From Thermoplasmatota archaeon (GTDB lineage Archaea > Thermoplasmatota > E2 > DHVEG-1): a DNA stretch of 64,000 nt. Position 1 is the first letter of the stretch; each line of letters opens with the position of its first letter. A program made the translations under genes and the position numbers. The notes under the pieces are model-generated. The model ran no database searches. It saw only the letters and a list, made by a program, of their open reading frames with translations, and was not told the origin of the DNA. The DNA lies in the NCBI GenBank assembly GCA_025457885.1, contig JALOTN010000004.1, forward strand, positions 10,875-74,874, given 5' to 3'. This document shows, in pieces, positions 3,846-34,251 of the stretch.

Positions 3846-4595
3846 TTGAAAGGCGGGAGACATATGGTCATAAACTATCTTATCTTAGATATCCTAATCA
3901 TCTTATTTCCGTTCTTACTTTCATTTAAGTGGAAGTTCGCCTATTATCGATACTACAAGGCATTGTTTCCAGCAATCGCCATCGTCGGAGCAGGTTACAT
4001 TTTCTGGGATGCGATTGTGACTGCAAGAGGAGACTGGTGGTTCAACTATGAGTATCTTTCTGAAATCACCATCATCGGATTACCTCTGGAGGAGATTTTA
4101 TTCTTCATTGTTGTCCCCTATTCCTGTATATTCATCTATGAGAACCTTGAGTATTTCTTTCCAGATAAAAAAACAAGATTCAGCAAGATCTTCTATGTTG
4201 TTTTGATCATATTATTCGTTCTCGGTGGACTTGCGTTCTATCACCAGGATTATACAATCCTTGCTCTGATGTCGTGTGCGTTTTTTTTACTCATCGCGCT
4301 TTGGCGTTTCCCAGACATCCTGCAATCACGGAACTACTGGCTCTACATCGGCATATCTATGATTCCCTTCATAATCTTCAATTACCTGCTCACCTCCACG
4401 CCCATCGTATTGTATAACCCTGCGGCCATCTGGGGTGGTGATGGGGCGTGGAACGGCCGGTTCTTCACTATACCACTCGAAGACTTCTTCTATAATTTCT
4501 CGATGCTATCGTTTTATCTGCTTGTTTACCGGTATTTCAGGAAACGATGGATTCAACCATCTACATCAAAACAAGGATTAAAGGATCACAAATGA
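3846..4595 (+). CDS. crtY: Lycopene cyclase domain protein (fused CrtYc/CrtYd-type)
   Basis: 249 aa polytopic membrane protein. It has two copies of the conserved PxE(E/D) motif of heterodimeric-type lycopene cyclases (GLPLEEILFF and TIPLEDFFY). Located beside crtI/crtB. Confidence 0.6.
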   Translation: MKGGRHMVINYLILDILIILFPFLLSFKWKFAYYRYYKALFPAIAIVGAGYIFWDAIVTARGDWWFNYEYLSEITIIGLPLEEILFFIVVPYSCIFIYENLEYFFPDKKTRFSKIFYVVLIILFVLGGLAFYHQDYTILALMSCAFFLLIALWRFPDILQSRNYWLYIGISMIPFIIFNYLLTSTPIVLYNPAAIWGGDGAWNGRFFTIPLEDFFYNFSMLSFYLLVYRYFRKRWIQPSTSKQGLKDHK

Positions 4596-4608
4596 GTGAT
4601 TCAATGGT

Positions 4609-5124
4609 GTGACCACCATGGATTTTTTTGGAGTGATTCTGGATGGATCTTCGGATCCTTTGCTTTTCGGGATTTTCTTTTTCGTCTATGTCGTGCTCAA
4701 TACCCTTGCCCTGCCTTTCCCAGTGGAACTGGGATTATTCAACCCTGCTTTTCATCCCTTGTTCTTGATAGGTATCCTTGCCGTGGGGCGAGGTGTTGGA
4801 GCGTTTTGTGTTTTTGAAATTGGAGGATTTATCAGAAAAAAGACAAGCACGTGGTCTGTAGGTGCATTCCGGTTACGAAAAACAATCAGCTCTCTTGAGC
4901 GGTTTATCCAACAGTATGGATATTATGCCTTGTTCCTCCTTATGAGCATCCCACTCATGCTGGATTCAGTGGTGCTGTATCTCTTTTCTCTTCTCAATAA
5001 ACGAAAGGATACCAAGGTAGCCCTTGCCCGGCGATGGTTTATCGGTATCACCATTGCAGCAAGTATCCTGCGTGGCACCATCATTCTTTTGGTTGCTGAA
5101 TTTGTAAAAATAATCCTGATATGA
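4609..5124 (+). CDS. Small polytopic membrane protein, unknown function
   Basis: 171 aa, 4-5 predicted TM helices, same strand and tightly spaced after crtY. No recognisable motif. Confidence 0.35.
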   Translation: MTTMDFFGVILDGSSDPLLFGIFFFVYVVLNTLALPFPVELGLFNPAFHPLFLIGILAVGRGVGAFCVFEIGGFIRKKTSTWSVGAFRLRKTISSLERFIQQYGYYALFLLMSIPLMLDSVVLYLFSLLNKRKDTKVALARRWFIGITIAASILRGTIILLVAEFVKIILI

Positions 5125-5183
5125 TATATTTAGTAATACAATAGGTATTACCTCTGGTATCACTTCTGGAGGAACATGTCATC

Positions 5184-6548
5184 ATGGTCTATCGTTCACC
5201 CTGGATCGTCCAATTAAAACGGTCCCGACCTATCCAAAAAGCACACTCCTTGCTCCACCCCGATTGTGTAGTTGTCGGTGGTGGTATCGCTGGGGTTGTC
5301 ACCGCATATTTTATTCTTCGACAGACATCTCATACTATCCTTCTCCTCGAGGCCGATCGTGTCGCCCATGGTGCGACTGGTCATAACGCAGGACAAGTAG
5401 TCAGCTACTTTGAGCGTCCTCTTCATGATATCGCCAGTCAGTTTGGGGCGCCTCTCACCTTAGATGCTTATCATCATCTTCAGGAGACCTGGGGTGTCTT
5501 GGATGATATTATCACCACAGCACACCTAAGGACGCCAGTCACAACATTCACTGGGTACGCTGGATACAGCACGTATCACCAACTTTTGAACCAATTAAAG
5601 ACTCTCCACCTGCTGCGCGATTCAAAAACAACACCAGAAAATCTCCTTCTCCTAAAAGAATCAGACCTTCATGGTAAGATCCCCTCCCTGTATCACCCTT
5701 ACATCAGCCTCATAAAACACCAGGAGTTATTACAACTTCTTGGTACGGGAAATTCACAGTATATCGCTGCTTTTCCCGAAAAAAAAGGATGTACCAACTC
5801 AAGTCTTCTGACCGAAGAACTCGTTGGGTATCTCCTCAGTACCTACCCTGAACGGTTTCATCTTTCAGAGCTTACACCTGTGAAAAGAATTTTGGTCACT
5901 CCAACACAAATTACACTTTCGACACCAGATCAGATCATCAAGACCCCTAGTCTGATTCTCTGCACCAATGGGTATACAACGTATCAGATTGATGCAGAAC
6001 CACTTAAACCGGTTCTCCAAAGATTTCATATTACTTCGACAGTCGGTTACATGAATGGATACCTAGATACTACCCTAAAACCACCGACCGCGACCCAATA
6101 CTTCACAACCCAAAACATCTCTCCAATCGATCCTTATTATTATCTCACGCGACGCATCTATGAACATGGAAGACATGCACATACATTGTTATGCATCGGT
6201 GGACCAGAACATCACTTACCGCAGGATCAACCTTATTCCCCTCATGCACAGTATCTTCCGAACGCACATCATGAAATCGACGCCTTCATTCATACAACCA
6301 GCAGCTATCCTCTTATCAAAACAACACCAGATTTTAAATGGCATGGTCTGATGGGCTATACCCCCACGATGATACGTCTGATCGGACCAGACCCACACTA
6401 TCCCAACCTCTCCTATAATCTTGGTTGCAATGGAGTCGGGATTTTACCATCTATCTATGCGGGAAAACGACTCGGTAACTATCTGGCTGGACGCTCCTTG
6501 AAACCATCTATATTTGATACAAAATTCATGAATAACAAAGAATTTTAA
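5184..6548 (+). CDS. FAD-dependent oxidoreductase (DAO-like)
   Basis: 454 aa. N-terminal dinucleotide-binding motif VVVGGGIAGVVTAYFIL (GxGxxG). Sits between crtY and crtI. Confidence 0.55.
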   Translation: MVYRSPWIVQLKRSRPIQKAHSLLHPDCVVVGGGIAGVVTAYFILRQTSHTILLLEADRVAHGATGHNAGQVVSYFERPLHDIASQFGAPLTLDAYHHLQETWGVLDDIITTAHLRTPVTTFTGYAGYSTYHQLLNQLKTLHLLRDSKTTPENLLLLKESDLHGKIPSLYHPYISLIKHQELLQLLGTGNSQYIAAFPEKKGCTNSSLLTEELVGYLLSTYPERFHLSELTPVKRILVTPTQITLSTPDQIIKTPSLILCTNGYTTYQIDAEPLKPVLQRFHITSTVGYMNGYLDTTLKPPTATQYFTTQNISPIDPYYYLTRRIYEHGRHAHTLLCIGGPEHHLPQDQPYSPHAQYLPNAHHEIDAFIHTTSSYPLIKTTPDFKWHGLMGYTPTMIRLIGPDPHYPNLSYNLGCNGVGILPSIYAGKRLGNYLAGRSLKPSIFDTKFMNNKEF

Positions 6549-6625
6549 TAGAAAATAAATATACTCCTGGAACAAAACTTTCTTTAATATCAAAACTATC
6601 CCTAAAATACGTAACGTGAAACACT

Positions 6626-8092
6626 ATGAAGAAAATAATTATAATCGGTGCAGGTTTTGGAGGAATAGCCGCAGCAGCCCTCCTGGCAAGAGATGGACAT
6701 GATGTCACTGTCGTAGAAAAAAACGATCAACCCGGAGGACGAGCCATCGTCTGGAACGAAAAAGGGTTCGTCTTCGACATGGGGCCATCCTGGTACCTCA
6801 TGCCTGATGTTTTCGAACAGTTCTTTGCTCTCTTTAACAAAAAACCAGAAGACTATTATAAACTCATTCGACTCAACCCAGCCTACCGGGTGTTCTTCGA
6901 TAAAGATGAAATCGTCGATATCTCGCCAGACCTTGAGAAGAACCTTCAACTCTTCGAACGATATCAAAAAGGAGGCCGGGAGCAATTAAAAAAATATCTC
7001 CAGGCTGCAGAATATCAATATACAATAGCAATGAAAGAGTTCATCTACAAGGAATATCGTCATCTCTGGGATTTCTTCAGCCTCCGTCTGTTGTTAAAAG
7101 GTAGTAAACTGCATATCTTCACCAGTCTTGACCGCTATGCGCAACGATACATCACCGATCAGAAATTACGGAAGATCCTTGAATACACCATGGTGTTCCT
7201 TGGAGGCACCCCCTTTGACACCCCTGCTTTATACTCCTTGATGTCCCATGTCGATTTCAACCTGGGCGTCTGGTACCCCGATGGTGGATTTGGAGCTCTT
7301 GCGAGAGGTTTTCAACGCCTCGCGGTTGAACAAGGCGTGAAATTCGAATTCAACACAGAAGTAGAAAAAATAATCGTGAAAAACGGGTCGGTCACTGGTG
7401 TGAAAACTTCTAAAGGAGAGACGTCTGCTGATCTGATCATAGCCAACGCAGATTATCCCTATGTTGAAATGAATCTACTCGAACCAACCTATCAAACCTA
7501 TCCAAAGGAATACTGGGAAAAGAAAGCCATTGCTCCCTCTGCCCTGCTCATGTACCTCGGGGTAAAAGGAAAAATCAAATCTTTTGCGCATCATAACCTA
7601 TATTTTGCCACTGACTGGGAGAAACATTTCCAGACAATATTCCATGAACCCAGCTGGCCAGAAAACCCAAGCTACTACGTCAGCTGTCCCTCAAAATCAG
7701 ATGCCACGGTCGCACCAGCAGATGATGAAAACCTCTTCATCCTGGTTCCGGTTGCTGCTGGATTAGAAGATACACCCCAGGTTAGAGAACGATATTTCAA
7801 CCAAATCATAAATCATTTGGAACTACTCACCGGGGAAAACATCAAGGACCGCATTATTGTCAAACGATTATTCGCCCATAAGGATTTCACCCAGTACTAT
7901 CATGCATACAAAGGGACCGCTCTTGGTCTAGCACATACATTGGGGCAAACCGCTATCTTCCGATGCTCCCATCAGAGTAAAAAAGTCAAAGGACTGTATT
8001 ACACCGGCCATTACACACATCCTGGCATCGGAGTTCCCATGGTAGTGATTTCCTCACAAATCATTGCTGAACAGCTTAGGAGCTCTCCATGA
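6626..8092 (+). CDS. crtI: Phytoene desaturase (CrtI family)
   Basis: 488 aa. N-terminal MKKIIIIGAGFGGIAAAALLARDGHDVTVVEKNDQPGGRA is the canonical CrtI FAD-binding start. Length and C-terminal region are typical. Overlaps crtB by 4 bp. Confidence 0.85.
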   Translation: MKKIIIIGAGFGGIAAAALLARDGHDVTVVEKNDQPGGRAIVWNEKGFVFDMGPSWYLMPDVFEQFFALFNKKPEDYYKLIRLNPAYRVFFDKDEIVDISPDLEKNLQLFERYQKGGREQLKKYLQAAEYQYTIAMKEFIYKEYRHLWDFFSLRLLLKGSKLHIFTSLDRYAQRYITDQKLRKILEYTMVFLGGTPFDTPALYSLMSHVDFNLGVWYPDGGFGALARGFQRLAVEQGVKFEFNTEVEKIIVKNGSVTGVKTSKGETSADLIIANADYPYVEMNLLEPTYQTYPKEYWEKKAIAPSALLMYLGVKGKIKSFAHHNLYFATDWEKHFQTIFHEPSWPENPSYYVSCPSKSDATVAPADDENLFILVPVAAGLEDTPQVRERYFNQIINHLELLTGENIKDRIIVKRLFAHKDFTQYYHAYKGTALGLAHTLGQTAIFRCSHQSKKVKGLYYTGHYTHPGIGVPMVVISSQIIAEQLRSSP

Positions 8093-8982
8093 TTATTGAT
8101 AAGACATTCTTCTCCATCTTCAGAAAAGGAAGCAGGACCTACTTCTACAGCAGCCTGTTCTTCCCCATGCATATCCGTCAGGAGGTCTTCATCCTCTACG
8201 GGTTCGTCCGGAAAACAGACAATTACGTCGACGTCACCCCACAGGACCGTGAAGGTTTTTATTCCTTTAAAAAGAAATATTACGAAGCAAAGAACGGAAA
8301 GGAAACCGGGGATGTCGTCATCGACTCCTTCGTCCGCTTAGCGGAACGGAAAGGATTTCACGATGAATGGGTAGACGCGTTCCTGCATTCCATGGAACTA
8401 GACATCACCAAAACCAAGTACGAGACCCTTGAGGAAGCCTTAGAATATATTTATGGATCTGCTGAGGTCATCGGCTTGATGATGGCACGCATCATCGGTC
8501 TTTCAAAAGAATCCTACGAGTATGCGAAATACCTCGGGCGGGCGATGCAATACATCAACTTCATAAGAGACATCGCAGAGGACCTCAAACTCGGTAGAGT
8601 CTATTTCCCGCAAGTCGATTTACGAAAACACGGGCTGGAGAACCTCACCTATGATCATGTAAAAGACCATCCGGAACAATTCAAACGGTTCCTGCAGACC
8701 CAGCTTGATCATTATTGTCAATGGCAAGAAAAAGCAGAGGAAGGTTATCACTACATCCCAAAACGCTACCTCATCTCTATAAAAACCGCCTCTGAGATGT
8801 ACAACTGGACCGCTGAACAAATCGCCCATCACCCCTTCATCGTTTACGACCTCAAAGTCAAACCGATGATCTCAAAGATACTTCTCACCGTTTTTTCAAA
8901 CCTTATCAACACCATGGGAAAGAAATTCAGCACCAACTTCTGTCATGAAGTCCTACACGAACAACCTCCTCCATCAAAGTAG
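8089..8982 (+). CDS. crtB: Phytoene/squalene synthase family (CrtB)
   Basis: 297 aa. Trans-isoprenyl diphosphate synthase head-to-head family features (YFYSSLFFP, Asp-rich regions, RDIAEDL...GRVYFP). Translationally coupled to crtI. Confidence 0.8.
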   Translation: MIIDKTFFSIFRKGSRTYFYSSLFFPMHIRQEVFILYGFVRKTDNYVDVTPQDREGFYSFKKKYYEAKNGKETGDVVIDSFVRLAERKGFHDEWVDAFLHSMELDITKTKYETLEEALEYIYGSAEVIGLMMARIIGLSKESYEYAKYLGRAMQYINFIRDIAEDLKLGRVYFPQVDLRKHGLENLTYDHVKDHPEQFKRFLQTQLDHYCQWQEKAEEGYHYIPKRYLISIKTASEMYNWTAEQIAHHPFIVYDLKVKPMISKILLTVFSNLINTMGKKFSTNFCHEVLHEQPPPSK

Positions 8983-10057: not shown

Positions 10058-10453
10058 GTGATTGCGACAGAGTCACATCATCACCCCTACACCAGCCTCG
10101 TTTCATTTGTCCCTTCATCGGACGATACTCATCTTTATTTCCCAACAAAAAAAGAGACACAGAAATTTTTTAATATATCAAAAAACCCGCATATCGCTGC
10201 CCTCATCGATAATCGAGAGAACACCCCCGGTGATTTCTCGAAGGCTACCACGGTCATTGCATTAGGAGTTGCCTCTGCAGTAGAGACGAACAAAGAACAT
10301 ATTAGGGAACTTCTCCTCCAAAAACACCCTGATTTATCTGATTTCATCTCTCATCCAGACTGTGCGCTTATCGACATCACCATAACGACCTATCAGATTG
10401 TACAACAATTCGAAAAAGTAAAGATCCTGCGTCTGAGAGATGTACCAGAATGA
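10058..10453 (+). CDS. Pyridoxamine 5'-phosphate oxidase-like FMN-binding split-barrel protein
   Basis: 131 aa as annotated (GTG start). The in-frame upstream peptide RRLIHTLLSSQHFAV resembles the usual N-terminus of this family, so the true start is probably upstream or non-canonical. Overlaps the photolyase start by 4 bp. Confidence 0.45.
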   Translation: MIATESHHHPYTSLVSFVPSSDDTHLYFPTKKETQKFFNISKNPHIAALIDNRENTPGDFSKATTVIALGVASAVETNKEHIRELLLQKHPDLSDFISHPDCALIDITITTYQIVQQFEKVKILRLRDVPE

Positions 10454-11787
10454 TTCAGCAGGAACGCATCCAGCAGCTCAATTCTCATTCCATCGGCTCA
10501 GGAGATTATGTACTCTACTGGATGCAAGCATCACAACGAATTCTAGATAATCATGCGTTACAATACGCGATACAGAAAGCCAATGAATACCAGAAACACC
10601 TCGTAGTTTTTTTTGGTTTGACACCTTCTTTTCCCGAGGCGAACCAAAGACATTACACTTTCATGCTTGAAGGTCTCAAAGAAACACAACAATCGCTTGA
10701 AAAACAAGGTATCACTTTTATCATTCAACCAATCTCACCAGAACAAGGAATCAAGAGACTCGCAACAGATGCATTACTCCTTGTCGTCGATAGAGGGTAC
10801 CTGCGTATTCAACGACAATGGAGACAGATAGTAGCCCAGCAGGTGCGTTGTCCACTACTCCAAGTTGAGACGGATGTCATCGTCCCCATTGATGTTGTGT
10901 CACAGAAAGAAGAATATGCGGCTGCAACCATCAGACCAAAGATACTGAAAAACCTAGAAAAGTTCCTGGTCCCCATCGAACCAGAACCACTTCAAAAAAC
11001 CTGTACGATGCATCATTTCGACTCACTTGACCTTTCGGACATACCCCGTCTTATAACGAACCTTCAAATCGATTCAACCGTGAAACCATCCGCACTATTT
11101 CATGGGGGGACGTCTGCTGCATTGCGATTCCTCCGTCGATTCATCACCCAGAAACTACCATGTTTTTCTGAGTTAAGAAATGACCCGAGCAAAGAATTTT
11201 GTTCCTATCTTAGCCCGTATCTTCATTTCGGTCAAATCTCCCCCTTAACGATCGCATTGAAAATTCGTGCAACAAAGGACCCCAACACTGACGCATTCCT
11301 CGAAGAACTCATCGTGCGAAGGGAGCTGAGTATGAACTATGTATACTTCAACAAAGACTATGATTCCTTCGCTGGTTTACCCTCATGGGCGAAGACAACG
11401 CTTCTCAACCATGTAAAAGACCCTCGACCGTATCTTTATACCGAAGAGGAACTTGAGACTGCAAAGACTCATGACCCGTTCTGGAACGCGGCTCAACGAG
11501 AAATGACACAGACAGGGAAGCTGCAAGGATATATGCGGATGTATTGGGGGAAGAAAATCATTGAATGGACTTCATCACCACAGGAAGCTTTTCAACTGGC
11601 TCTCCGGTTGAATAACAAATATGAACTGGATGGAAGAGACCCCAATGGATTCGCTGGTGTCGCCTGGTGCTTTGGGAAGCACGACCGAGCATGGAAGGAA
11701 CGACCGGTCTTCGGGAAAGTCCGTTACATGAATGACGCGGGTCTGACAAGGAAATTTGATATGACATCCTATATCAGGAACTTATAA
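10450..11787 (+). CDS. phr: Class II CPD deoxyribodipyrimidine photolyase
   Basis: 445 aa. YVLYWMQASQRILDNHALQYAI near the N-terminus and the C-terminal FAD-binding region (GYMRMYWGKK, W-rich) match class II photolyases of archaea/metazoa. Confidence 0.85.
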   Translation: MIQQERIQQLNSHSIGSGDYVLYWMQASQRILDNHALQYAIQKANEYQKHLVVFFGLTPSFPEANQRHYTFMLEGLKETQQSLEKQGITFIIQPISPEQGIKRLATDALLLVVDRGYLRIQRQWRQIVAQQVRCPLLQVETDVIVPIDVVSQKEEYAAATIRPKILKNLEKFLVPIEPEPLQKTCTMHHFDSLDLSDIPRLITNLQIDSTVKPSALFHGGTSAALRFLRRFITQKLPCFSELRNDPSKEFCSYLSPYLHFGQISPLTIALKIRATKDPNTDAFLEELIVRRELSMNYVYFNKDYDSFAGLPSWAKTTLLNHVKDPRPYLYTEEELETAKTHDPFWNAAQREMTQTGKLQGYMRMYWGKKIIEWTSSPQEAFQLALRLNNKYELDGRDPNGFAGVAWCFGKHDRAWKERPVFGKVRYMNDAGLTRKFDMTSYIRNL

Positions 11788-12550: not shown

Positions 12551-13507
12551 ATGATTTCATTGTATCAAAAACGTGGGGAGAATGTATCCATGTCTGATAT
12601 GAAAATCATGTGTCCGAAATGCCGCCATCAGTTCAATACCACAGGTGCACCAAACGAAAAAATCTATGTCACCTGTCCCTCCTGTAAGACCTATGGGACG
12701 TTTCTGGTCCCAGCAGGAGCCTGCGACCCGAAGAAAGTGGAATGTTTCACAGATATAGGAGATACCCGTTTTCGGAAATTACGGATTTTTAATGCCGTGA
12801 TGGGTGTCATCCATATGATTCAGGGGATCCTTATGCTTATTCTGAGTAATTCTTTTACCTTACCTCTTTGGTACACACGCCCAGAGTATAACGCGGTCAC
12901 CAACACGATTTCACCTGTTTCAGTGGAATTTTTGAAGCTTCCAATTGGACCACTTGTCGCCTTGTTCCTCTTCATGTCGGCAACAGCACACATCCTCCTT
13001 TCCACGGTGCTGTACAAATGGTATGTGAACAATCTGAAGAATCATATCAATCCTGCCCGTTGGTATGAATACTCTTTAAGTGCGTCCCTTATGATTTTCC
13101 TTATTGCCATGTTGGTCACGATTTATGATTTTGGAACGTTACTTGCGCTATTCACCTTGACAGCCGTGATGAACCTTATGGGGTTAATGATGGAGCTTCA
13201 TAATCAGACGACGACAAAGACGAAATGGACGTCGTTTAACATCGGATGCCTCGCAGGATTCATCCCTTGGGTTGTGATCTTCATCCCTCTGGTGATGGCG
13301 TCATCAGTCCCGGATTTTGTCATTGCGATTTTTATTACGATCGCGGTGTTCTTCAACCTCTTCGCCATCAACATGTTCCTTCAGTACAAGCGAATTTGGA
13401 AATGGAAGGATTACCTCTATGGTGAGCGGATGTATATCGTCCTCAGTCTGGTTGCTAAATCTGCTCTCGCCTGGCAGGTGTTCGCCGGAACCCTTCGACC
13501 AATGTAA
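12551..13507 (+). CDS. Heliorhodopsin with N-terminal zinc-ribbon domain
   Basis: 318 aa. Residues ~75-318 align closely with heliorhodopsin 48C12: FNAVMGVIHMIQGILMLILSN, WYEYSLSASLMIFLIA, GCLAGFIPWVVIFIPL, and the TM7 retinal-lysine motif YIVLSLVAKSALAWQVFAGTL, which is near-identical. The N-terminal ~60 aa carries CPKC...CPSC (C4 zinc ribbon). Confidence 0.85.
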   Translation: MISLYQKRGENVSMSDMKIMCPKCRHQFNTTGAPNEKIYVTCPSCKTYGTFLVPAGACDPKKVECFTDIGDTRFRKLRIFNAVMGVIHMIQGILMLILSNSFTLPLWYTRPEYNAVTNTISPVSVEFLKLPIGPLVALFLFMSATAHILLSTVLYKWYVNNLKNHINPARWYEYSLSASLMIFLIAMLVTIYDFGTLLALFTLTAVMNLMGLMMELHNQTTTKTKWTSFNIGCLAGFIPWVVIFIPLVMASSVPDFVIAIFITIAVFFNLFAINMFLQYKRIWKWKDYLYGERMYIVLSLVAKSALAWQVFAGTLRPM

Positions 13508-19751: not shown

Positions 19752-20447
19752 GTGAATCCTGCGAAAAAACCATCTGAGACGATGCCTCAACAGTTTCATT
19801 TTCATGATTTAGTAATCTCCTTACATCCTGAGGTCTATGATCCTGCAGAGGATTCCTTCCTCTTGCTTGAATCTCTCATGATTAGCCCAAAGGACACAAT
19901 TTTAGAGCTAGGCACTGGGTGTGGTCTGATCGCCTTAGCCTGTGCCTTTCAAGGAGCAACGGTGGTCTGTACAGATATCAATCCGTATGCCGTCCAACTT
20001 ACCCGTCAGAACATCGAAAAAAACAGCCATCTTCTCAAAGGAGTAATCACCGTTCGACAAGGAGATTTGTTTTCCATGGTGAAAAACTCGGAACGATTCA
20101 ACTTGATTCTGTTCAATCCTCCCTATCTTCCCACGAAAAAAAACGAAAGAACAGACACCTGGTTCAATGTTGCGACCGATGGAGGACCCACCGGTCTGCG
20201 GCTGACCAAACAATTCCTTCATGGCCTCCGTCAGCATCTTCAGCCAGATGGTGCTGGATATTTCATCTTCAGCTCCTTGTCGAACCGGATTCTTCTGGAG
20301 AAATACCTTAAAAAGGAACAGCTCTCCTCAACGATTCTTACCACAAAACGATATGACGGGGAGGACCTTGACGTCTACCGCGTCACTCCGACAGCTTCAA
20401 ATCAACAAAAAGAGTTACGTTCCCCAACTGAGGCACGCACCACATGA
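19752..20447 (+). CDS. HemK/Mtq2-type protein N5-glutamine methyltransferase-like class I SAM MTase
   Basis: 231 aa. EVYDPAEDSFLL, the SAM motif LELGTGCGLIALA, and the NPPY motif (ILFNPPYLP) are characteristic of the HemK/Mtq2 family. GTG start, with an alternative ATG at 19782. Confidence 0.7.
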   Translation: MNPAKKPSETMPQQFHFHDLVISLHPEVYDPAEDSFLLLESLMISPKDTILELGTGCGLIALACAFQGATVVCTDINPYAVQLTRQNIEKNSHLLKGVITVRQGDLFSMVKNSERFNLILFNPPYLPTKKNERTDTWFNVATDGGPTGLRLTKQFLHGLRQHLQPDGAGYFIFSSLSNRILLEKYLKKEQLSSTILTTKRYDGEDLDVYRVTPTASNQQKELRSPTEARTT

Positions 20448-21013
20448 CCGATGATCTTTACCCCTGGGGTGGTGAATTCACCACATGCTCACCACATGGT
20501 TGCGTCGCAGTCGTACTCCTCAATATCCAGTACACCCCACCAGAGAGCATCGCCATCTACGGACCTTTAAAAACAGAGAATATCGGCATTGAAAAAATCA
20601 TTGCAAACGTCATTTCAAATCCCTTTATTCGTTATTTAGTACTCTGTGGTGAGGACATCCGGGGACATCGCTCAGGCGCCTCCCTTGTCGCCTTGCATAA
20701 AAATGGGATTGATCAGAATCATCGTATCATTGATGCACTTGGTGCCATCCCTTACATCGAAAACCTCCACCAAGAAGCGATTAAAAGATTCCAGGATCAA
20801 TTAACCATCATCAATCTCCTTGGAGTGACACAAAAAGACCATATCGATGCCGTCATCACAGACTGCAACCAAAAGGCACCCCCCTCATTTGGTGCCCCCT
20901 ACATTGCGATACGCATCAAACCACAGGCGACGGTGACCCTCACAGACAATCGAGCGTTACATTCAAGGATTATTATTGATTATTTAGGGAACATCAAAAA
21001 AAGAGGTATGTGA
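20444..21013 (+). CDS. mtrA: Soluble MtrA-like corrinoid-binding protein (homolog of tetrahydromethanopterin S-methyltransferase subunit A, lacking the C-terminal TM anchor)
   Basis: 189 aa. PLKTENIGIEKIIANVISNPFIRYLVLCGEDIRGHRSG closely matches the MtrA cobamide-binding region, including the conserved His ligand. GAIPYIENLHQEAIKRFQDQ also matches. No C-terminal hydrophobic helix. Confidence 0.75.
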   Translation: MTDDLYPWGGEFTTCSPHGCVAVVLLNIQYTPPESIAIYGPLKTENIGIEKIIANVISNPFIRYLVLCGEDIRGHRSGASLVALHKNGIDQNHRIIDALGAIPYIENLHQEAIKRFQDQLTIINLLGVTQKDHIDAVITDCNQKAPPSFGAPYIAIRIKPQATVTLTDNRALHSRIIIDYLGNIKKRGM

Positions 21014-21916
21014 ATGTTTTCATTTACAAAAGAACAGAAAATCTTCGACATCTCCGGTGTAACCATCGGAGGCCAACCCGGGATGTACCCCACTGTCTTA
21101 TTTGGTGGGTTGTTCTTCAAAGGCGAACCGGATTTCGAGGATGCGAAACGACACCTGCAGGTCTTCTATGACCGCAGCAAACAAACCGGAGTCCCTGTCA
21201 TCCCTGATTTCTTCATCAGGAAAGTCGAGTATATCGACCCTATCCTCTCCTTCATTGAAAAGACAATCCCCCGGAAACACCCTTTCTCTGTTGACATCAT
21301 CGAACCATCTTTGAAGATACAGACCTTGGAACAGCTCGCACACAGAAAACTCCTGCCCCGAACAATCTATAACTCTCTACACATCGGGATGACCAGCGAG
21401 GAACATGAGGCATTACAGACACATCCACCAGAGGCAGCTATCCTCGTCGCATTTAATCCGAAAGACAAATCCCCTGATGGAAAAATCGAGGTTCTTGAGA
21501 ACGGGGCACATCTTATGGAACAAGGATTGTTGAAAACCGCTCAGGATATCGGTATTACGAAACTGCTGATTGACACTGCGGCACTTGCCCCTGGTGAGAA
21601 CAGCGGGGCTGCGATCGCTGCCATCCCCGTCATCAAGGAGGAATACGGTTTACCCACAGGGTGCGCTATCCATAATGTCGTTGAGAAATCCCGGTGGTTA
21701 AACGACTTCCCCTTCGCGAAAAAAACAGTCGACGTCAGCTCCAATACCACCATCCCGCTCTTCGGCGGGGATTACGCACTCTTCGGACCTATTGAAAACA
21801 CAGAACTCATTCTCCCGCTCATCGCCTGGCAAGACATCCTCATCTCCGAGTATACTGAGAATTATTTCGGAATCATCCCAACTGCTTCACATCCTCGGAG
21901 GAAACTACTCAAATGA
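21014..21916 (+). CDS. mtrH: MtrH-like methyl-pterin:corrinoid methyltransferase
   Basis: 300 aa. N-terminus MFSFTKEQKIFDISGVTIGGQPGMYPTVL is near-canonical for MtrH (MFxFDKEQxVFDIGGVKFGGQPGExPTVL). C-terminal YALFGPIEN matches too. Confidence 0.8.
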   Translation: MFSFTKEQKIFDISGVTIGGQPGMYPTVLFGGLFFKGEPDFEDAKRHLQVFYDRSKQTGVPVIPDFFIRKVEYIDPILSFIEKTIPRKHPFSVDIIEPSLKIQTLEQLAHRKLLPRTIYNSLHIGMTSEEHEALQTHPPEAAILVAFNPKDKSPDGKIEVLENGAHLMEQGLLKTAQDIGITKLLIDTAALAPGENSGAAIAAIPVIKEEYGLPTGCAIHNVVEKSRWLNDFPFAKKTVDVSSNTTIPLFGGDYALFGPIENTELILPLIAWQDILISEYTENYFGIIPTASHPRRKLLK

Positions 21917-22812
21917 GACAGAAGATACAGACCAGTGTCATCGGATCCTACCCGGTCTTCATCAACACCCAGGAGATCATGAACCTCTATTTTACTGAAC
22001 AACCAATACCCTGGGCTCCCTACATCCGCCAAGCAGTCCAGGACATGACCACCGCAGGCATCACCAACGTTTCTGATGGCCAGACCAGGGATCCCTTTAT
22101 CCAGTTATTCACCAGAAAAATGAAAGGATGCCGCGTCAGGCAACGACCTGAGATTATCGGAAAAGTACAATACCAAGACCCCATCACCGTTGATGATCAG
22201 ATCTATGCCAAACGACTCCTCCCTAGACATACCAAGCTTATCGGGGTCCTCACTGGTCCGTATACTCTTGCGAAATCCTCCGTTGACTCCTTCTATCATG
22301 ATGAAAAAGAACTTGCTTTTGATTTTGCAACCGCCCTTCGAAAAGAAGCAGAACATCTAGTAAAACATGTCGATTTCATCAGCATCGATGAACCGGTTTT
22401 CTCCAATGAACTCCCCGAGTACGCATCGGAGCTACTCCAAACCATCACTAAAGATCTCTCCTGCCAGACACGACTGCATGTCTGCGGCGATGTCTCCGGT
22501 ATCATCCCGCAACTCGTAGACATGCCAGTTGACATCCTTTCCCACGAGTTCAAAGCCTCACCACATCTCTTTGAGGGTTTCATCGAATACCCCTGCAAGA
22601 AACACATGTGTATCGGTGCAGTCCGCTCCGATGAGGTACGAGTGGAGTCCGTCGAGGAAATCGTCACCCATGTCAGAAAAGCTCTCAGTGTGTTTGATGG
22701 AAACATCTCTCAAATCTCCCCTGACTGCGGACAGCGGCTTCTCCCAAGAGAACATGCGTTTCAAAAACTGAAAAACCTTGCATTAGCAGGAGAGATACTC
22801 AATGGCGGATAA
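21913..22812 (+). CDS. metE: Core-MetE-like (cobalamin-independent methionine synthase catalytic-domain family) methylcorrinoid:homocysteine methyltransferase
   Basis: 299 aa. VIGSYP motif near the N-terminus. Meth_synt_2-like Zn-ligand region (HxCG: RLHVCGD, and a C-terminal CG). The size matches archaeal core-MetE. Overlaps mtrH by 4 bp. Confidence 0.6.
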   Translation: MRQKIQTSVIGSYPVFINTQEIMNLYFTEQPIPWAPYIRQAVQDMTTAGITNVSDGQTRDPFIQLFTRKMKGCRVRQRPEIIGKVQYQDPITVDDQIYAKRLLPRHTKLIGVLTGPYTLAKSSVDSFYHDEKELAFDFATALRKEAEHLVKHVDFISIDEPVFSNELPEYASELLQTITKDLSCQTRLHVCGDVSGIIPQLVDMPVDILSHEFKASPHLFEGFIEYPCKKHMCIGAVRSDEVRVESVEEIVTHVRKALSVFDGNISQISPDCGQRLLPREHAFQKLKNLALAGEILNGG

Positions 22813-23128
22813 AGAAATCCCATTAATTCAAGCAAAGAAAACCACGGAAAAAGATGTTCTCCTAGATCCCAACGGTTTTTTCGTCATCGAGGTCGACAGA
22901 AAAACCATCCGCGTGGAATACTACTCAAACGTGTACAAAAATAAACGAATCGTCTCAGGGATCCTCCAAAAAGTATTCACTGGAACCTCCGCTGATGCCT
23001 TATCTGACACCATCGCATCCCATGTTCCCCCTTTACGACCTGAACATTACCTATACCTTGGTCGTGAGCTACAGAAAGCACAACTCGCGTTCGAACACCA
23101 GAAAAAATACATCCAAGGTGGATGCTAA
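22802..23128 (+). CDS. Small conserved hypothetical protein in the methyltransferase operon
   Basis: 108 aa. Overlaps the metE-like stop by 11 bp on the same strand. No motif I can name. Confidence 0.35.
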   Translation: MADKEIPLIQAKKTTEKDVLLDPNGFFVIEVDRKTIRVEYYSNVYKNKRIVSGILQKVFTGTSADALSDTIASHVPPLRPEHYLYLGRELQKAQLAFEHQKKYIQGGC

Positions 23129-23349: not shown

Positions 23350-24132
23350 CTACGATTGTTTCTTCACCGATTCATTTCTGGTCACATGAAACTCTGTTTT
23401 CCCGTTACACCATTTTTTTGTGATATTACTCACCGTGATGGTCTCCCCAATACGACAGGGTTGGATATCCTTTACGTTCCGATCCCAAAGGATTAAATTT
23501 TTTTGTGTATTCTGCTGTTTCATCGTAATCGATGTCACAAAACCAACCTCTCCATCGTCCTTGAAGAACGCTTTTGTGGGTTCTTTCAAGAGTAGGACTC
23601 CAGTGATCTCCTCAGAATACTCCTTTGTTGGCTGCAAGGATGACACATCAGATGGTTCCACCTCTAAAAGCCCCCATCGACCAAGATGAATCTCCATCCC
23701 ACCCGTATACCCCGTCTTGGTGTATCCATTGATGATCTTCACACGTGTCCCTGGTTTGATTTCCTTGTTTTTTATCGAGTCAATATCCCCATTCCATAAA
23801 ACGAGTCGGCAGGAACCGGATTCATCTGCTATCTCGAGATTTACGACCTTTCCTGGGGAGCCGTTCTTTCTTTTAAATGACTTTGAGTCTGAGACGTTTT
23901 GGACTACCCCGGCCACGGTATACTCCCCGTTGGCGGTGAGGTCAGCGATTTTTATGATGCTTTGGGTGTTTCTCCCCAGTTGATCGACCAGGAGGAACGC
24001 AATGGTGTCCTTGTCTATCAGCTCATCATATTGTTTATATTGTTTGTTAATTTCTTTTTCAAATTCTTTTATCGGCTTGATGTCAGCGATGAGTTTGAGA
24101 AGCTCTATTTTTGTCTTATGCATCCGCAGCAT
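23350..24132 (-). CDS. OB-fold ssDNA-binding protein (RPA-like, two OB folds)
   Basis: 260 aa. Two repeats with the RPA-like OB-fold pattern (GKVVNLEIADESGSCRLVLWNGD; second unit ...ILWDRNVKDIQPCRIGETITVSN). Confidence 0.45.
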   Translation of the reverse strand: MLRMHKTKIELLKLIADIKPIKEFEKEINKQYKQYDELIDKDTIAFLLVDQLGRNTQSIIKIADLTANGEYTVAGVVQNVSDSKSFKRKNGSPGKVVNLEIADESGSCRLVLWNGDIDSIKNKEIKPGTRVKIINGYTKTGYTGGMEIHLGRWGLLEVEPSDVSSLQPTKEYSEEITGVLLLKEPTKAFFKDDGEVGFVTSITMKQQNTQKNLILWDRNVKDIQPCRIGETITVSNITKKWCNGKTEFHVTRNESVKKQS

Positions 24133-32700: not shown

Positions 32701-34251
32701 TTAATGACGGAAGTACCTCTGACCCGTGAACACCATGGGTATCTTATGGTGGTCGGCTGCCTCGATGACCTCCGCATCCCTAATGGAGCCCCCTGGTTGA
32801 ATGATTGCTTTGACCCCTGCGTTCACCGCGACGTCCACAGCGTCCCTGAAGGGGAAGAACGCGTCACTGGCCATGATGGATCCTTTGATGTTGTCCTTGC
32901 CTTTGTTGGTGGCAATCCATGTGGCATCAACCCGGGAGGTCTGTCCTCCACCGATTCCCACGGTCCGCGTGTCTTTTACAAACACCACGGAGTTTGATTT
33001 GATATGTTTGACGCATCGTACCGCGAAATCCATGGAGAGTAAATCCTCCTTTGTTGGTTTGTTTTTTGTCACGACCTTCCAGGTGTTTTGATCCGCGAAC
33101 CACACGTCTCGTTCCTGGATGAGGTACCCTCCGACGACACTGCGGAGGTCTAAGCCGTTTCGCATCTGTTTTTTCTCAAGACCGGGGAGTCCAAGGCACC
33201 TGAGGTTTTTCTTACTTTGTAATATCTGTTGTGCCTCAGGGGTGAAACCTGGTGCGATAATCACTTCAAGGAAATATTTTGAGAGCTCCTGAGCGACTTC
33301 ATGGTCCAGTTCTCTGTTGAATGCGACAATACCACCGTACGGTGAATAGATGTCGGTGGCGTAGGCATCGTTCCACGCCTGAAGTTCTGTAACTGCACTG
33401 GCGATTCCGCAGGGAGTCGCATGTTTAATGATCACGCAGGAGGGTGCATTGAATTCTTTGATACATTCAATCGCACAGTTGGAATCAAGGATGTTGTTGA
33501 ATGACAACTCTTTCCCCTGTAATTGCTCTGCGGTAGCGATACAGGGTTCCTTGGTTACGGGGAGGCTTTTATAAAACGCTCCTTTCTGATGCGGGTTTTC
33601 CCCGTACCGCATCTCCTGAATCTTCCGCATGGTTATGGAGAAATCCTCTGGTAAAACCTCTTTGGTCCATCGGCTTCTCAGGTACTGGGCGATCATTGCG
33701 TCATACTGAGCCGTATGAGCATAGGCATGGATCGCTAATTTCTCTTTTTGCTCAGCTGATACTCCTTTTTTTGATTGTAACGCCTGGAGGACCTCATGAT
33801 AGTGTTTTGGGCTCGTGACCACGACGACATCCTCGTAGTTCTTGGCTGCCGCGCGAATGAGCGTAGGTCCCCCGATGTCGATATTCTCGATAACCTCCTC
33901 GATGCTAACGTTTGGTTTTTGAATCGTGCTTTCAAACGGGTAGAGGTTGCAGACGACCACATCGATCATGTTGATATGATGTTCCTTGAGGGTTTTCTGA
34001 TGGTCTTTCTTTTCTCGCCTTGCAAGGATCCCTGCATGAATGATCGGATGCAGAGTCTTAACTCTCCCATCAAGCATCTCAGGAAACCCGGTCACCGACG
34101 ACACATCAGTGTACGGGATGTTAGCTTTCTGCAGCACCGCAGCAGTCCCACCGGTTGTTAGAATAGTGTACCCTAGCGTATGAAGTCCTTTTGAAAAATC
34201 AACGATACCTTCCTTGTCATAAACGCTTATCAGTGCGTATCGGTAATCCAT
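32701..34251 (-). CDS. purH: Bifunctional AICAR transformylase/IMP cyclohydrolase
   Basis: 516 aa. N-terminal MGS-like domain (ALISVYDKEGIVDF...ILTTGGTA) and C-terminal AICARFT domain. Confidence 0.85.
   Translation of the reverse strand: MDYRYALISVYDKEGIVDFSKGLHTLGYTILTTGGTAAVLQKANIPYTDVSSVTGFPEMLDGRVKTLHPIIHAGILARREKKDHQKTLKEHHINMIDVVVCNLYPFESTIQKPNVSIEEVIENIDIGGPTLIRAAAKNYEDVVVVTSPKHYHEVLQALQSKKGVSAEQKEKLAIHAYAHTAQYDAMIAQYLRSRWTKEVLPEDFSITMRKIQEMRYGENPHQKGAFYKSLPVTKEPCIATAEQLQGKELSFNNILDSNCAIECIKEFNAPSCVIIKHATPCGIASAVTELQAWNDAYATDIYSPYGGIVAFNRELDHEVAQELSKYFLEVIIAPGFTPEAQQILQSKKNLRCLGLPGLEKKQMRNGLDLRSVVGGYLIQERDVWFADQNTWKVVTKNKPTKEDLLSMDFAVRCVKHIKSNSVVFVKDTRTVGIGGGQTSRVDATWIATNKGKDNIKGSIMASDAFFPFRDAVDVAVNAGVKAIIQPGGSIRDAEVIEAADHHKIPMVFTGQRYFRH

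Follow-up and report, generated by a model that had tools for sequence, protein, structure and literature searches.

We identified, in a 64,000-nucleotide (nt) stretch of DNA from a Thermoplasmatota archaeon (GenBank assembly GCA_025457885.1, contig JALOTN010000004.1, positions 10,875 to 74,874 of the forward strand; hereafter, the window), an operon that probably encodes a soluble, multiprotein cobamide-dependent methionine synthase, a reading to which sequence comparison leads us to assign a probability of roughly 0.7. In this system, a methyl group would pass from a methyl-pterin through an MtrH-like enzyme and a cobalt-bearing MtrA-like carrier to a MetE-like enzyme and on to methionine. 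The core unit consists of 4 genes, namely, mtrA-like, mtrH-like, mesA-like metE, and a gene for a DUF4346 protein, and is near-universal and single-copy in the clade that carries it. A preliminary description of this DNA had proposed such a relay; the proposal is supported comparatively and passed the 3 tests set for it, on enzyme family, neighboring Mtr genes, and gene order, with corrections concerning an upstream HemK2 gene, the DUF4346 gene, membership in MesA, and the likely pterin, folate rather than tetrahydromethanopterin (H4MPT).

The cassette lies within 5 consecutive plus-strand genes, confirmed in the open reading frame (ORF) listing, and the overlapping stop and start codons described earlier were all borne out in the sequence. 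Gene 1 encodes a HemK2/Mtq2-type protein treated further below. It is followed by genes for a soluble MtrA-like cobamide-binding carrier of 189 amino acids (aa) (20444 to 21013; PF04208), an MtrH-like methyl-pterin:corrinoid methyltransferase of 300 aa (21014 to 21916; PF02007), a single-domain MetE-type, MesA-like zinc thiol methyltransferase of 299 aa (21913 to 22812; PF01717, NF002119), and a small DUF4346 accessory protein of 108 aa with the ending QGGC (22802 to 23128; PF14251), all on the plus strand. The MtrA stop codon (21011 to 21013) directly abuts the MtrH ATG at 21014, the MtrH and MetE genes share an ATGA at 21913 to 21916, and the DUF4346 ATG at 22802 precedes the MetE stop codon (22810 to 22812), giving an overlap of 11 nt. 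A GGAGG-type Shine-Dalgarno motif is found 8 to 12 nt 5' of every internal start. As described earlier, the window holds no other methanogenesis genes: mcr, mtrB-G, Wood-Ljungdahl, and coenzyme M (CoM) genes were all absent among the 40 further ORFs annotated.

In the route that we propose, the MtrH-like enzyme, a TIM barrel, would remove the methyl group of a methyl-pterin, most probably 5-methyl-tetrahydrofolate, and, by analogy with its family, would methylate the Co(I) cobamide bound His-on to the soluble MtrA-like carrier. By analogy with the reaction of its relative MesA in vitro, the MetE/MesA-like enzyme would activate homocysteine at its zinc site and take the methyl group from CH3-Co(III)-MtrA, yielding methionine and regenerated Co(I). 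Methylation of the MtrA corrinoid by MtrH is established for the Mtr complex (Hippler and Thauer 1999, as cited in PMC7005905). In vitro, MesA and core-MetE enzymes both accept methylcobalamin, but their Km for it is high (PMC7005905, PMC7857596), so that the physiological donor is expected to be a corrinoid protein.

To assess conservation, we used an alignment of the MetE-like protein to scan one genome per species (Genome Taxonomy Database representatives) and located neighboring genes by tblastn with the 5 proteins of the window. The scan gave 80 loci, all from uncultured Thermoplasmatota and with 49% to 82% MetE identity to the window enzyme, including SG8-52-3, SM1-50, M11B2D, and M9B1D of MBG-D/Thermoprofundales (Marine Benthic Group D) and 3 closed chromosomes. 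Named close homologues of the MetE-like protein all came from metagenome-assembled genomes (MAGs) labeled Thermoplasmatota, Thermoplasmata, or "Euryarchaeota," and a divergent metagenomic locus (L092; 48% identity in MetE and 44% in DUF4346) has the same arrangement. MtrH was found directly upstream of MetE in 77 of 78 evaluable loci, and MtrA was found upstream of MtrH in 68 of 71, with 1 apparent miss due to a frameshifted MtrH. The junctions are equally constant: the gap from MtrA to MtrH measures 0 to 10 nt in 64 of 66 loci, MtrH and MetE overlap in 45 of 50, and MetE and DUF4346 overlap by 4 to 11 nt in 67 of 67. The identities of the 4 proteins to those of the window co-vary (Spearman 0.77 to 0.82, n = 61). 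Gene order is kept in essentially every evaluable related genome, and mtrB-G are absent from the window and from the recurrent neighbors of the approximately 80 related loci. The upstream side varies, being occupied by a RadA-looking cluster in 23 loci, by HemK2 in 19, and by assorted genes in the rest; the recurrent flanking genes of which representatives were read, identified by sequence inspection rather than by profile search, look like housekeeping genes (RadA-, SMC-, ScpA/B-, and NAD-kinase-like). Three loci deviate at MtrA. A 693-aa minus-strand gene lies between MtrA and MtrH in L021 (3680 to 6102), about 5.6 kb of unrelated genes separates them in L036 (482 to 6102), and in L035 (5551 to 7004; closed genome CP070712.1), MtrA is absent within 7 kb and the tblastn match of MtrH starts at residue 22 (249-aa ORF).

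The last gene of the cassette had been recorded earlier as a small conserved ORF; the conservation holds, and the product can now be named as a DUF4346 protein and a core component, found downstream of MetE in 78 of 79 loci with the sole miss at a contig end. It matches PF14251 (PterinBD-DUF4346) with 75 bits against a cutoff of 29.6 (E = 6e-21, profile positions 1 to 85 of 86). Its place as an obligate fourth component appears to be a new finding, and the literature that we searched yielded no mention of DUF4346/PF14251. An AlphaFold2 model (pLDDT 95) has a beta3-alpha2 fold, for which the PDB returned no informative homologue. At 69 of 73 loci, the protein terminates in Gly-Cys, mostly as QGGC (54 loci) or QDGC (11 loci) (window 23114 to 23128; L003 to L082), and in the loci printed, this Cys is the only cysteine of the protein or one of two. 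Among the 104 representatives of the family described below, only 8 standalone relatives have a Gly-Cys-stop ending; a ninth, fused to ThyA, ends in Cys within another motif, and the fused DUF4346 domains lack the Q-[G/D]-G-C ending. As a working guess, DUF4346 could dock onto, cap, or protect either the cobamide of MtrA or the zinc site of MetE by way of a flexible C-terminal Cys thiolate. The thiol beside a free carboxylate, peculiar to the subfamily whose translation is coupled to that of a thiol methyltransferase, suggests 3 possible parts: a ligand that caps or protects the MtrA cobalt, a pseudo-substrate ligand of the MetE zinc, or a transient methyl acceptor.

Gene 4 had been assigned to the MetE catalytic-domain type from its VIGSYP motif, and profile searches agree. 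PF01717 matches with E = 3.6e-29 and covers residues 7 to 290 of 299, and no significant match to PF08267 was found in the profile search, so the N-terminal pterin-binding half is missing. The best NCBIfam family is NF002119, the equivalog of methanogen MesA (224 bits, E = 2e-66), below its cutoff of 258; true MesA proteins score 403 to 477 bits, and the window enzyme and other members of the clade score 216 to 227. For comparison, a search seeded with an approximate M. jannaschii sequence retrieved the real protein at 100% identity together with named MesA-family proteins of Methanothermobacter, Methanobacterium, Methanococcus, and Methanobrevibacter, and only these database proteins were used. 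The window enzyme is 32% identical to MesA of Methanothermobacter sp. (P0405) and 35% identical to that of M. jannaschii (P0344). Since Price et al. delimit MesA at about 40% identity or more and to methanogens only (PMC7857596), the identity below 40% and the score below the cutoff place the enzyme on a sister branch of MesA rather than within it. The zinc ligands H189, C191, E212, and C272 show no variation within the clade or in true MesA, and neither do the motifs VxGSYP, SDGQxR, GxxTGPxT, DEP, HxCG, EF, and PDCGxR; this constancy argues for a shared zinc-thiolate chemistry and, in the simplest case, for a shared substrate.

Two other identities for gene 4 were rejected. Kinship with MtaA or UroD, the first of the tests, is ruled out by the profile scores, as the enzyme groups with MetE/MesA instead: MtaA models reach E = 1e-7 and URO-D E = 1e-3, and in a profile search of the PDB, core and full-length MetE structures gave 1e-27 to 1e-20 and MtaA (4AY7) 1e-5. 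A split MetE is ruled out as well, as no PF08267 (Meth_synt_1) gene was found in the window region or in the 8 recurrent flank clusters inspected.

The relay could instead deliver its methyl group to another thiol, such as CoM, another small thiol, or the C-terminal Cys of DUF4346 as a protein-borne S-methyl group, which we regard as unlikely, although it is the best of the alternatives. Speth and Orphan proposed CoM methylation (methyl-tetrahydrofolate:CoM) for the soluble MtrAH of Methanomassiliicoccales (PMC6147122), the score of the MetE-like enzyme below the MesA cutoff leaves room for a different substrate, and the near-invariant terminal Cys, with a thiol and free carboxylate that resemble homocysteine, belongs to a gene that is always translationally coupled to the MetE-like gene. 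Against this, the closest characterized relatives of the enzyme are homocysteine methyltransferases, with the MesA motifs IGS, SDGQxR, and DEP all invariant; MtaA-type CoM methyltransferase models fit about 60 orders of magnitude worse; the annotated ORFs of the window include neither CoM nor methanogenesis genes; and a housekeeping cassette of near-universal, single-copy occurrence suits an essential biosynthesis.

The earlier MtrH-like assignment of gene 3 holds, with a nearly full-length match to PF02007 (182 bits, E = 1.4e-53) and a match to M. mazei MtrH in the PDB (9QTP, 140 bits). TIGR01114 gives 196 bits, short of its cutoff of 271, and the model of MtgA, the tetrahydrofolate (THF) enzyme, reaches E = 1e-41; MtgA of Desulfitobacterium hafniense (6SJ8, 132 bits), a methylcorrinoid:tetrahydrofolate methyltransferase, is about as close as MtrH, so the sequence alone does not fix the pterin. 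The earlier comparison was with methyl-H4MPT:corrinoid methyltransferases, but folate is likelier than H4MPT: the pterin in the source lineage is probably 5-methyl-tetrahydrofolate, because the window encodes a folate-type PurH, because Thermoprofundales MAGs carry the H4folate methyl branch (PMC6461988), and because MtrH-family enzymes such as MtgA can use folate. This PurH is a bacterial-type bifunctional AICARFT/IMPCHase (window 32701 to 34251, minus strand, E = 6e-118), which uses 10-formyl-tetrahydrofolate and indicates folate-based one-carbon metabolism in the source archaeon. Zhou et al. found the H4folate methyl branch in 8 of 8 Thermoprofundales MAGs studied and partial H4MPT genes in only 1, and these MBG-D genomes, described as those of (peptide) fermenters, lack carbon monoxide dehydrogenase/acetyl-CoA synthase (CODH/ACS) save for 1 putative CdhA in SG8-52-3 (PMC6461988). 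Without CODH/ACS, the corrinoid iron-sulfur protein (CoFeSP) thought to serve MesB/MesC elsewhere would be unavailable, hence the need for a dedicated carrier.

The MtrH-like enzyme resembles MtgA, whose reaction runs from corrinoid to THF, as much as it does MtrH, and this also fits a reverse, catabolic flow, in which the MetE-like enzyme would strip the methyl group from methionine or another methylated sulfur compound and load it onto MtrA, and the MtrH-like enzyme would hand it on to tetrahydrofolate for oxidation, like the MtgB-MtgC-MtgA glycine betaine system. A lifestyle of peptide fermentation with a folate methyl branch and without CODH/ACS, as described for MBG-D, would agree with it. 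Nonetheless, we consider this flow very unlikely. The Mtr reaction from pterin to thiol is exergonic, at about -30 kJ/mol, and its reversal requires a sodium gradient, a caveat also raised in PMC6147122. By this analogy, the pterin-to-thiol direction would be favored in a soluble system without an ion gradient, and thioether-to-pterin transfer would run uphill by about 30 kJ/mol. In addition, MetE-family enzymes are not known as MT1-type demethylases, and the cassette sits among housekeeping genes rather than transporters or catabolic genes.

The carrier of the proposed relay was described earlier as keeping the cobamide-binding core and its His and lacking the membrane anchor, and each point is borne out. 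It matches PF04208 (165 bits, E = 1.4e-48), remains below every MtrA equivalog cutoff (TIGR01111, 153 bits against 249), and can be aligned with the M. jannaschii MtrA domain of known structure (5LAA, E = 1e-40). In this alignment, His75 (in CGEDIRGH) matches His84, the cobalt ligand of the solved MtrA, and Glu45 (in KTEN) matches its hydrogen-bonded partner Glu54, with roles as given in PMC4915002. No transmembrane segment is present (maximum Kyte-Doolittle value of 1.23 over 19-residue windows), and the protein is predicted to be soluble. Its C-terminal tail (residues 161 to 189; window 20924 to 21010) extends about 28 residues past the Pfam domain, is conserved in 66 orthologues, and carries a D-x-RALHS motif; MAFFT aligns this tail with the first DUF4346 strands of the fusion proteins described next, although the meaning of this is uncertain.

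We exhaustively searched 1.84 billion representative proteins with the DUF4346 protein and found 104 representatives at E <= 0.001, mostly standalone proteins of 100 to 140 aa. Among 20 longer members examined, 7 were MtrA+DUF4346, 1 was MtrA+ThyA-like+DUF4346, 2 were ThyA-like+DUF4346, 3 joined a dihydropteroate synthase-like Pterin_bind domain to DUF4346, and 3 joined a single-cluster 4Fe-4S ferredoxin to it. The MtrA-DUF4346 fusion family counts 1,672 matches, including Aenigmatarchaeota, Nanoarchaeota, and Parcubacteria, and among 9 fused MtrA domains aligned, the His is kept in 7 and the Glu in 8. By these sequences, genes 2 and 5 of the run are a Rosetta-stone pair, and they bracket the MtrH and MetE-like genes. 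The ferredoxin-DUF4346 fusions (P0186, P0209, P0221) are accompanied by 2 MtrA-DUF4346 proteins (P0196, P0220) with an N-terminal Cys-rich extension of about 100 aa and several CxxC-type motifs; speculatively, such fusions and extensions may hint at electron delivery for the reactivation of Co(II).

Several observations weigh against a methionine synthase relay. The evidence for it is comparative throughout. The convergent OB-fold gene downstream of the cassette is likewise conserved in 68 loci, so part of the conservation is frozen synteny within a single clade. No cassette was found outside Thermoplasmatota in the species scan, with P0160 leading to nothing and P0126 only to a deeper branch of the clade; in the methanogen contexts L087, L088, L089/L090, and L091, MesA is not adjacent to MtrA or MtrH; and MtrA is separated or missing in L021, L036, and L035. 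The score below the MesA cutoff and the 32% to 35% identity mean that the substrate of the MetE-like enzyme is extrapolated, and the conserved terminal Cys of DUF4346 hints at chemistry beyond a simple relay. Further, no RamA-like reductive activase was found in or next to the cassette or among the recurrent flanks read. The equally conserved but unrelated OB-fold gene, the restriction of the loci found to a single phylum, and the position of MesA in the methanogens would also fit a set of mere neighbors with unrelated functions, kept together by slow rearrangement; we give this the least chance of all, as strand and overlap or abutment are kept at all 3 junctions over about 50% protein divergence while the upstream side is reshuffled, genes 2 and 5 are fused into one polypeptide in other phyla, and the chemistries of the 3 enzyme families fit together.

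Read as a methionine synthase, the cassette resembles several known systems in part. With MesA of methanogens (Schroder and Thauer 1999; PMC7857596), the window enzyme shares a single MetE barrel of about 300 aa without the folate-binding N-terminal half, identical zinc-ligand and substrate motifs, NF002119 as best family, and an MtrA-type cobamide protein as presumed donor. It differs in its limited identity, its score below the cutoff, and its occurrence in non-methanogens; moreover, the predicted donor in methanogens is the membrane Mtr complex, whereas here a dedicated soluble MtrA is encoded in the same operon with MtrH and DUF4346. The Na+-pumping methyl-H4MPT:CoM methyltransferase MtrA-H has the MtrA fold with the His-on residues and an MtrH-type loading enzyme in common with the cassette, and the "cytoplasmic MtrA homologues" of Wagner et al. 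(2016, PMC4915002) match the carrier in length and in the missing anchor. In contrast to the complex, the cassette lacks MtrB-G, the anchor, and ion pumping, its MtrA- and MtrH-like proteins both fall below the equivalog cutoffs, its acceptor side is formed by a MetE-type barrel in place of MtrE with CoM, and its pterin is probably folate.

Orphan soluble MtrAH pairs without other Mtr subunits are known from lineages without Mcr (MALP Methanomassiliicoccales, SG8-5 Thermoplasmata, Thorarchaeia, and other Asgard archaea), but the pair here sits in an operon with a methionine-synthase-type enzyme. Reports on such pairs consider CoM methylation, feeding into the Wood-Ljungdahl pathway, or an unclear function (PMC6147122, 10.1101/2020.03.09.984617, PMC9635834, PMC11291895), and a term search of these 4 papers did not find the word "methionine." The logic of the proposed relay, from methyl-folate through Co(I)/CH3-Co(III) cobamide to zinc-activated homocysteine, is that of MetH, and the folate module of MetH and MtrH are both members of one pterin-binding barrel superfamily (26% identity between MtrH and that module, PMC7005905). 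However, the cassette encodes separate polypeptides, its MtrA-fold B12 protein and MetE-type homocysteine barrel are non-homologous to the MetH modules, and it has a DUF4346 protein in place of the S-adenosylmethionine (AdoMet) reactivation domain. Most likely, the cassette does the work of MetH with parts that are not orthologous to it, the pterin barrel alone being homologous to a MetH module. A corrinoid protein that shuttles methyl groups between 2 methyltransferases is also found in Dehalococcoides MesB/core-MetE, with CoFeSP as presumed donor, and in MtgB-MtgC-MtgA, where MtgA is itself an MtrH-family enzyme. These systems differ from the cassette in that its carrier is of the MtrA type rather than CoFeSP or an MtgC/MetH-type B12 domain, its related genomes lack CODH/ACS, and its flow would be anabolic, towards the thiol.

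The preliminary description treated the corrinoid donor of core MetE as an open question, which is correct insofar as there are still only predictions, but MtrA has already been predicted in print. A corrinoid protein as donor of archaeal core MetE was argued for in 1999, with MTH124 or MtrH (MTH1156) as candidates, according to the account in PMC7005905. Price et al. (2021) predicted MtrA as the MesA donor from phylogenetic profiles (PMC7857596), and Price and Arkin (2024) noted MesA and MtrA close together on the same strand "in a few genomes" (PMC11378808). Our literature searches (DUF4346, MTH124, MtrAH and methionine) found no prior description of the cassette in non-methanogens. What appears to be new is a conserved, dedicated, soluble 4-gene system, including MtrH and DUF4346, in a whole clade of non-methanogens, together with the link provided by the MtrA-DUF4346 fusions and the terminal Cys of DUF4346.

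MtrA-DUF4346 fusions are widespread in DPANN archaea and were seen in Parcubacteria as well. We examined 5 distinct contexts, and in 3 of them a methanogen-type ThyA-like gene adjoins the fusion gene or is no more than 700 nt away (L083:5001-6709; L084 and L085:4401-7416; L086:5001-7255; negative in L094 and L095). Genes for dCTP deaminase and for thymidylate kinase or a different kinase are close by, and MtrH and MetE were absent from these contexts. The ThyA-like proteins have TIGR03283 as best match, below its cutoff, and ThyA-DUF4346 and MtrA-ThyA-DUF4346 fusion proteins were found as well (P0198, P0199, P0157). Separately, Methanobacteriales carry a same-strand cluster of DUF1890, DUF1894, MesA, methanogen-type thymidylate synthase, and Mch (L087:4213-7527, L091:4166-7607), in which the thymidylate synthase gene overlaps the end of MesA, linking MesA and archaeal ThyA by neighborhood in a second lineage. 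The fusion contexts suggest a putative cobamide-linked thymidylate route, for which we found no literature. A wider proposal, which we hold to be doubtful, is that soluble MtrA and DUF4346 together form a portable module that carries one-carbon units on a cobamide to lineage-specific acceptors, MesA-like in Thermoplasmatota and ThyA-like in DPANN and Parcubacteria.

The gene upstream of the cassette (19752 to 20447, plus strand) encodes a HemK2/Mtq2-type S-adenosylmethionine-dependent protein (glutamine) methyltransferase, with an equivalog-level match to NF011529 (173 bits, cutoff 162) and 146 bits for TIGR00537 (cutoff 87, E = 9e-43). The longest ORF starts from GTG at 19752 (231 aa), and public gene calls on identical contigs start from ATG at 19782 (221 aa), the likely true start. 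The translational coupling described earlier is present here, as the gene shares an ATGA with MtrA (20444 to 20447, by sequence reading), but tblastn placed the gene next to the cassette in no more than 18 of 64 evaluable loci, scattered over the clade and including the divergent L092. The suggested role as a corrinoid-reactivation partner is unsupported for such an ordinary, equivalog-level housekeeping enzyme, which is co-transcribed here and stands outside the core module.

Directly downstream of the cassette, the convergent OB-fold protein of 260 aa (window 23350 to 24132, minus strand) has tRNA_anti-codon and CDC24_OB3-like domains and is possibly an RPA-type single-stranded DNA-binding protein. 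Elsewhere, the window encodes a large ribosomal-protein operon, ArcTGT, HisRS, NadA, and a binding-protein-dependent ABC transporter. We also identified a light-related gene set (window 3846 to 8982, 10450 to 11787, and 12551 to 13507), comprising heliorhodopsin (PF18761, E = 2e-93), lycopene cyclase, phytoene synthase, photolyase, and 2 FAD oxidoreductases, 1 of them amine-oxidase/CrtI-like.

The physiological donor of core methionine synthases has been an open question since 1999, and the operon offers an all-soluble 4-protein system for a direct test of MtrA in this role. DUF4346, an uncharacterized domain without a solved homologue, emerges as a constant partner of soluble MtrA, and any mechanism must account for its conserved terminal Cys. 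If the portable module is real, it would imply an unrecognized cobamide-linked thymidylate route in minimal-genome organisms, and DUF4346 would gain a mechanistic role, with its cassette-specific terminal Cys as a cobalt or zinc ligand or a transient methyl acceptor; MtrA and MtrH would then be ancient anabolic genes rather than markers of methanogenesis. MtrAH in non-methanogens has been taken as a remnant of methanogenesis or as support for methanogenic ancestors (PMC9635834, PMC13473441). The relay would give these "methanogenesis" genes of non-methanogens a job, and an anabolic role of this kind would alter the use of soluble MtrAH as markers of methanogenesis.

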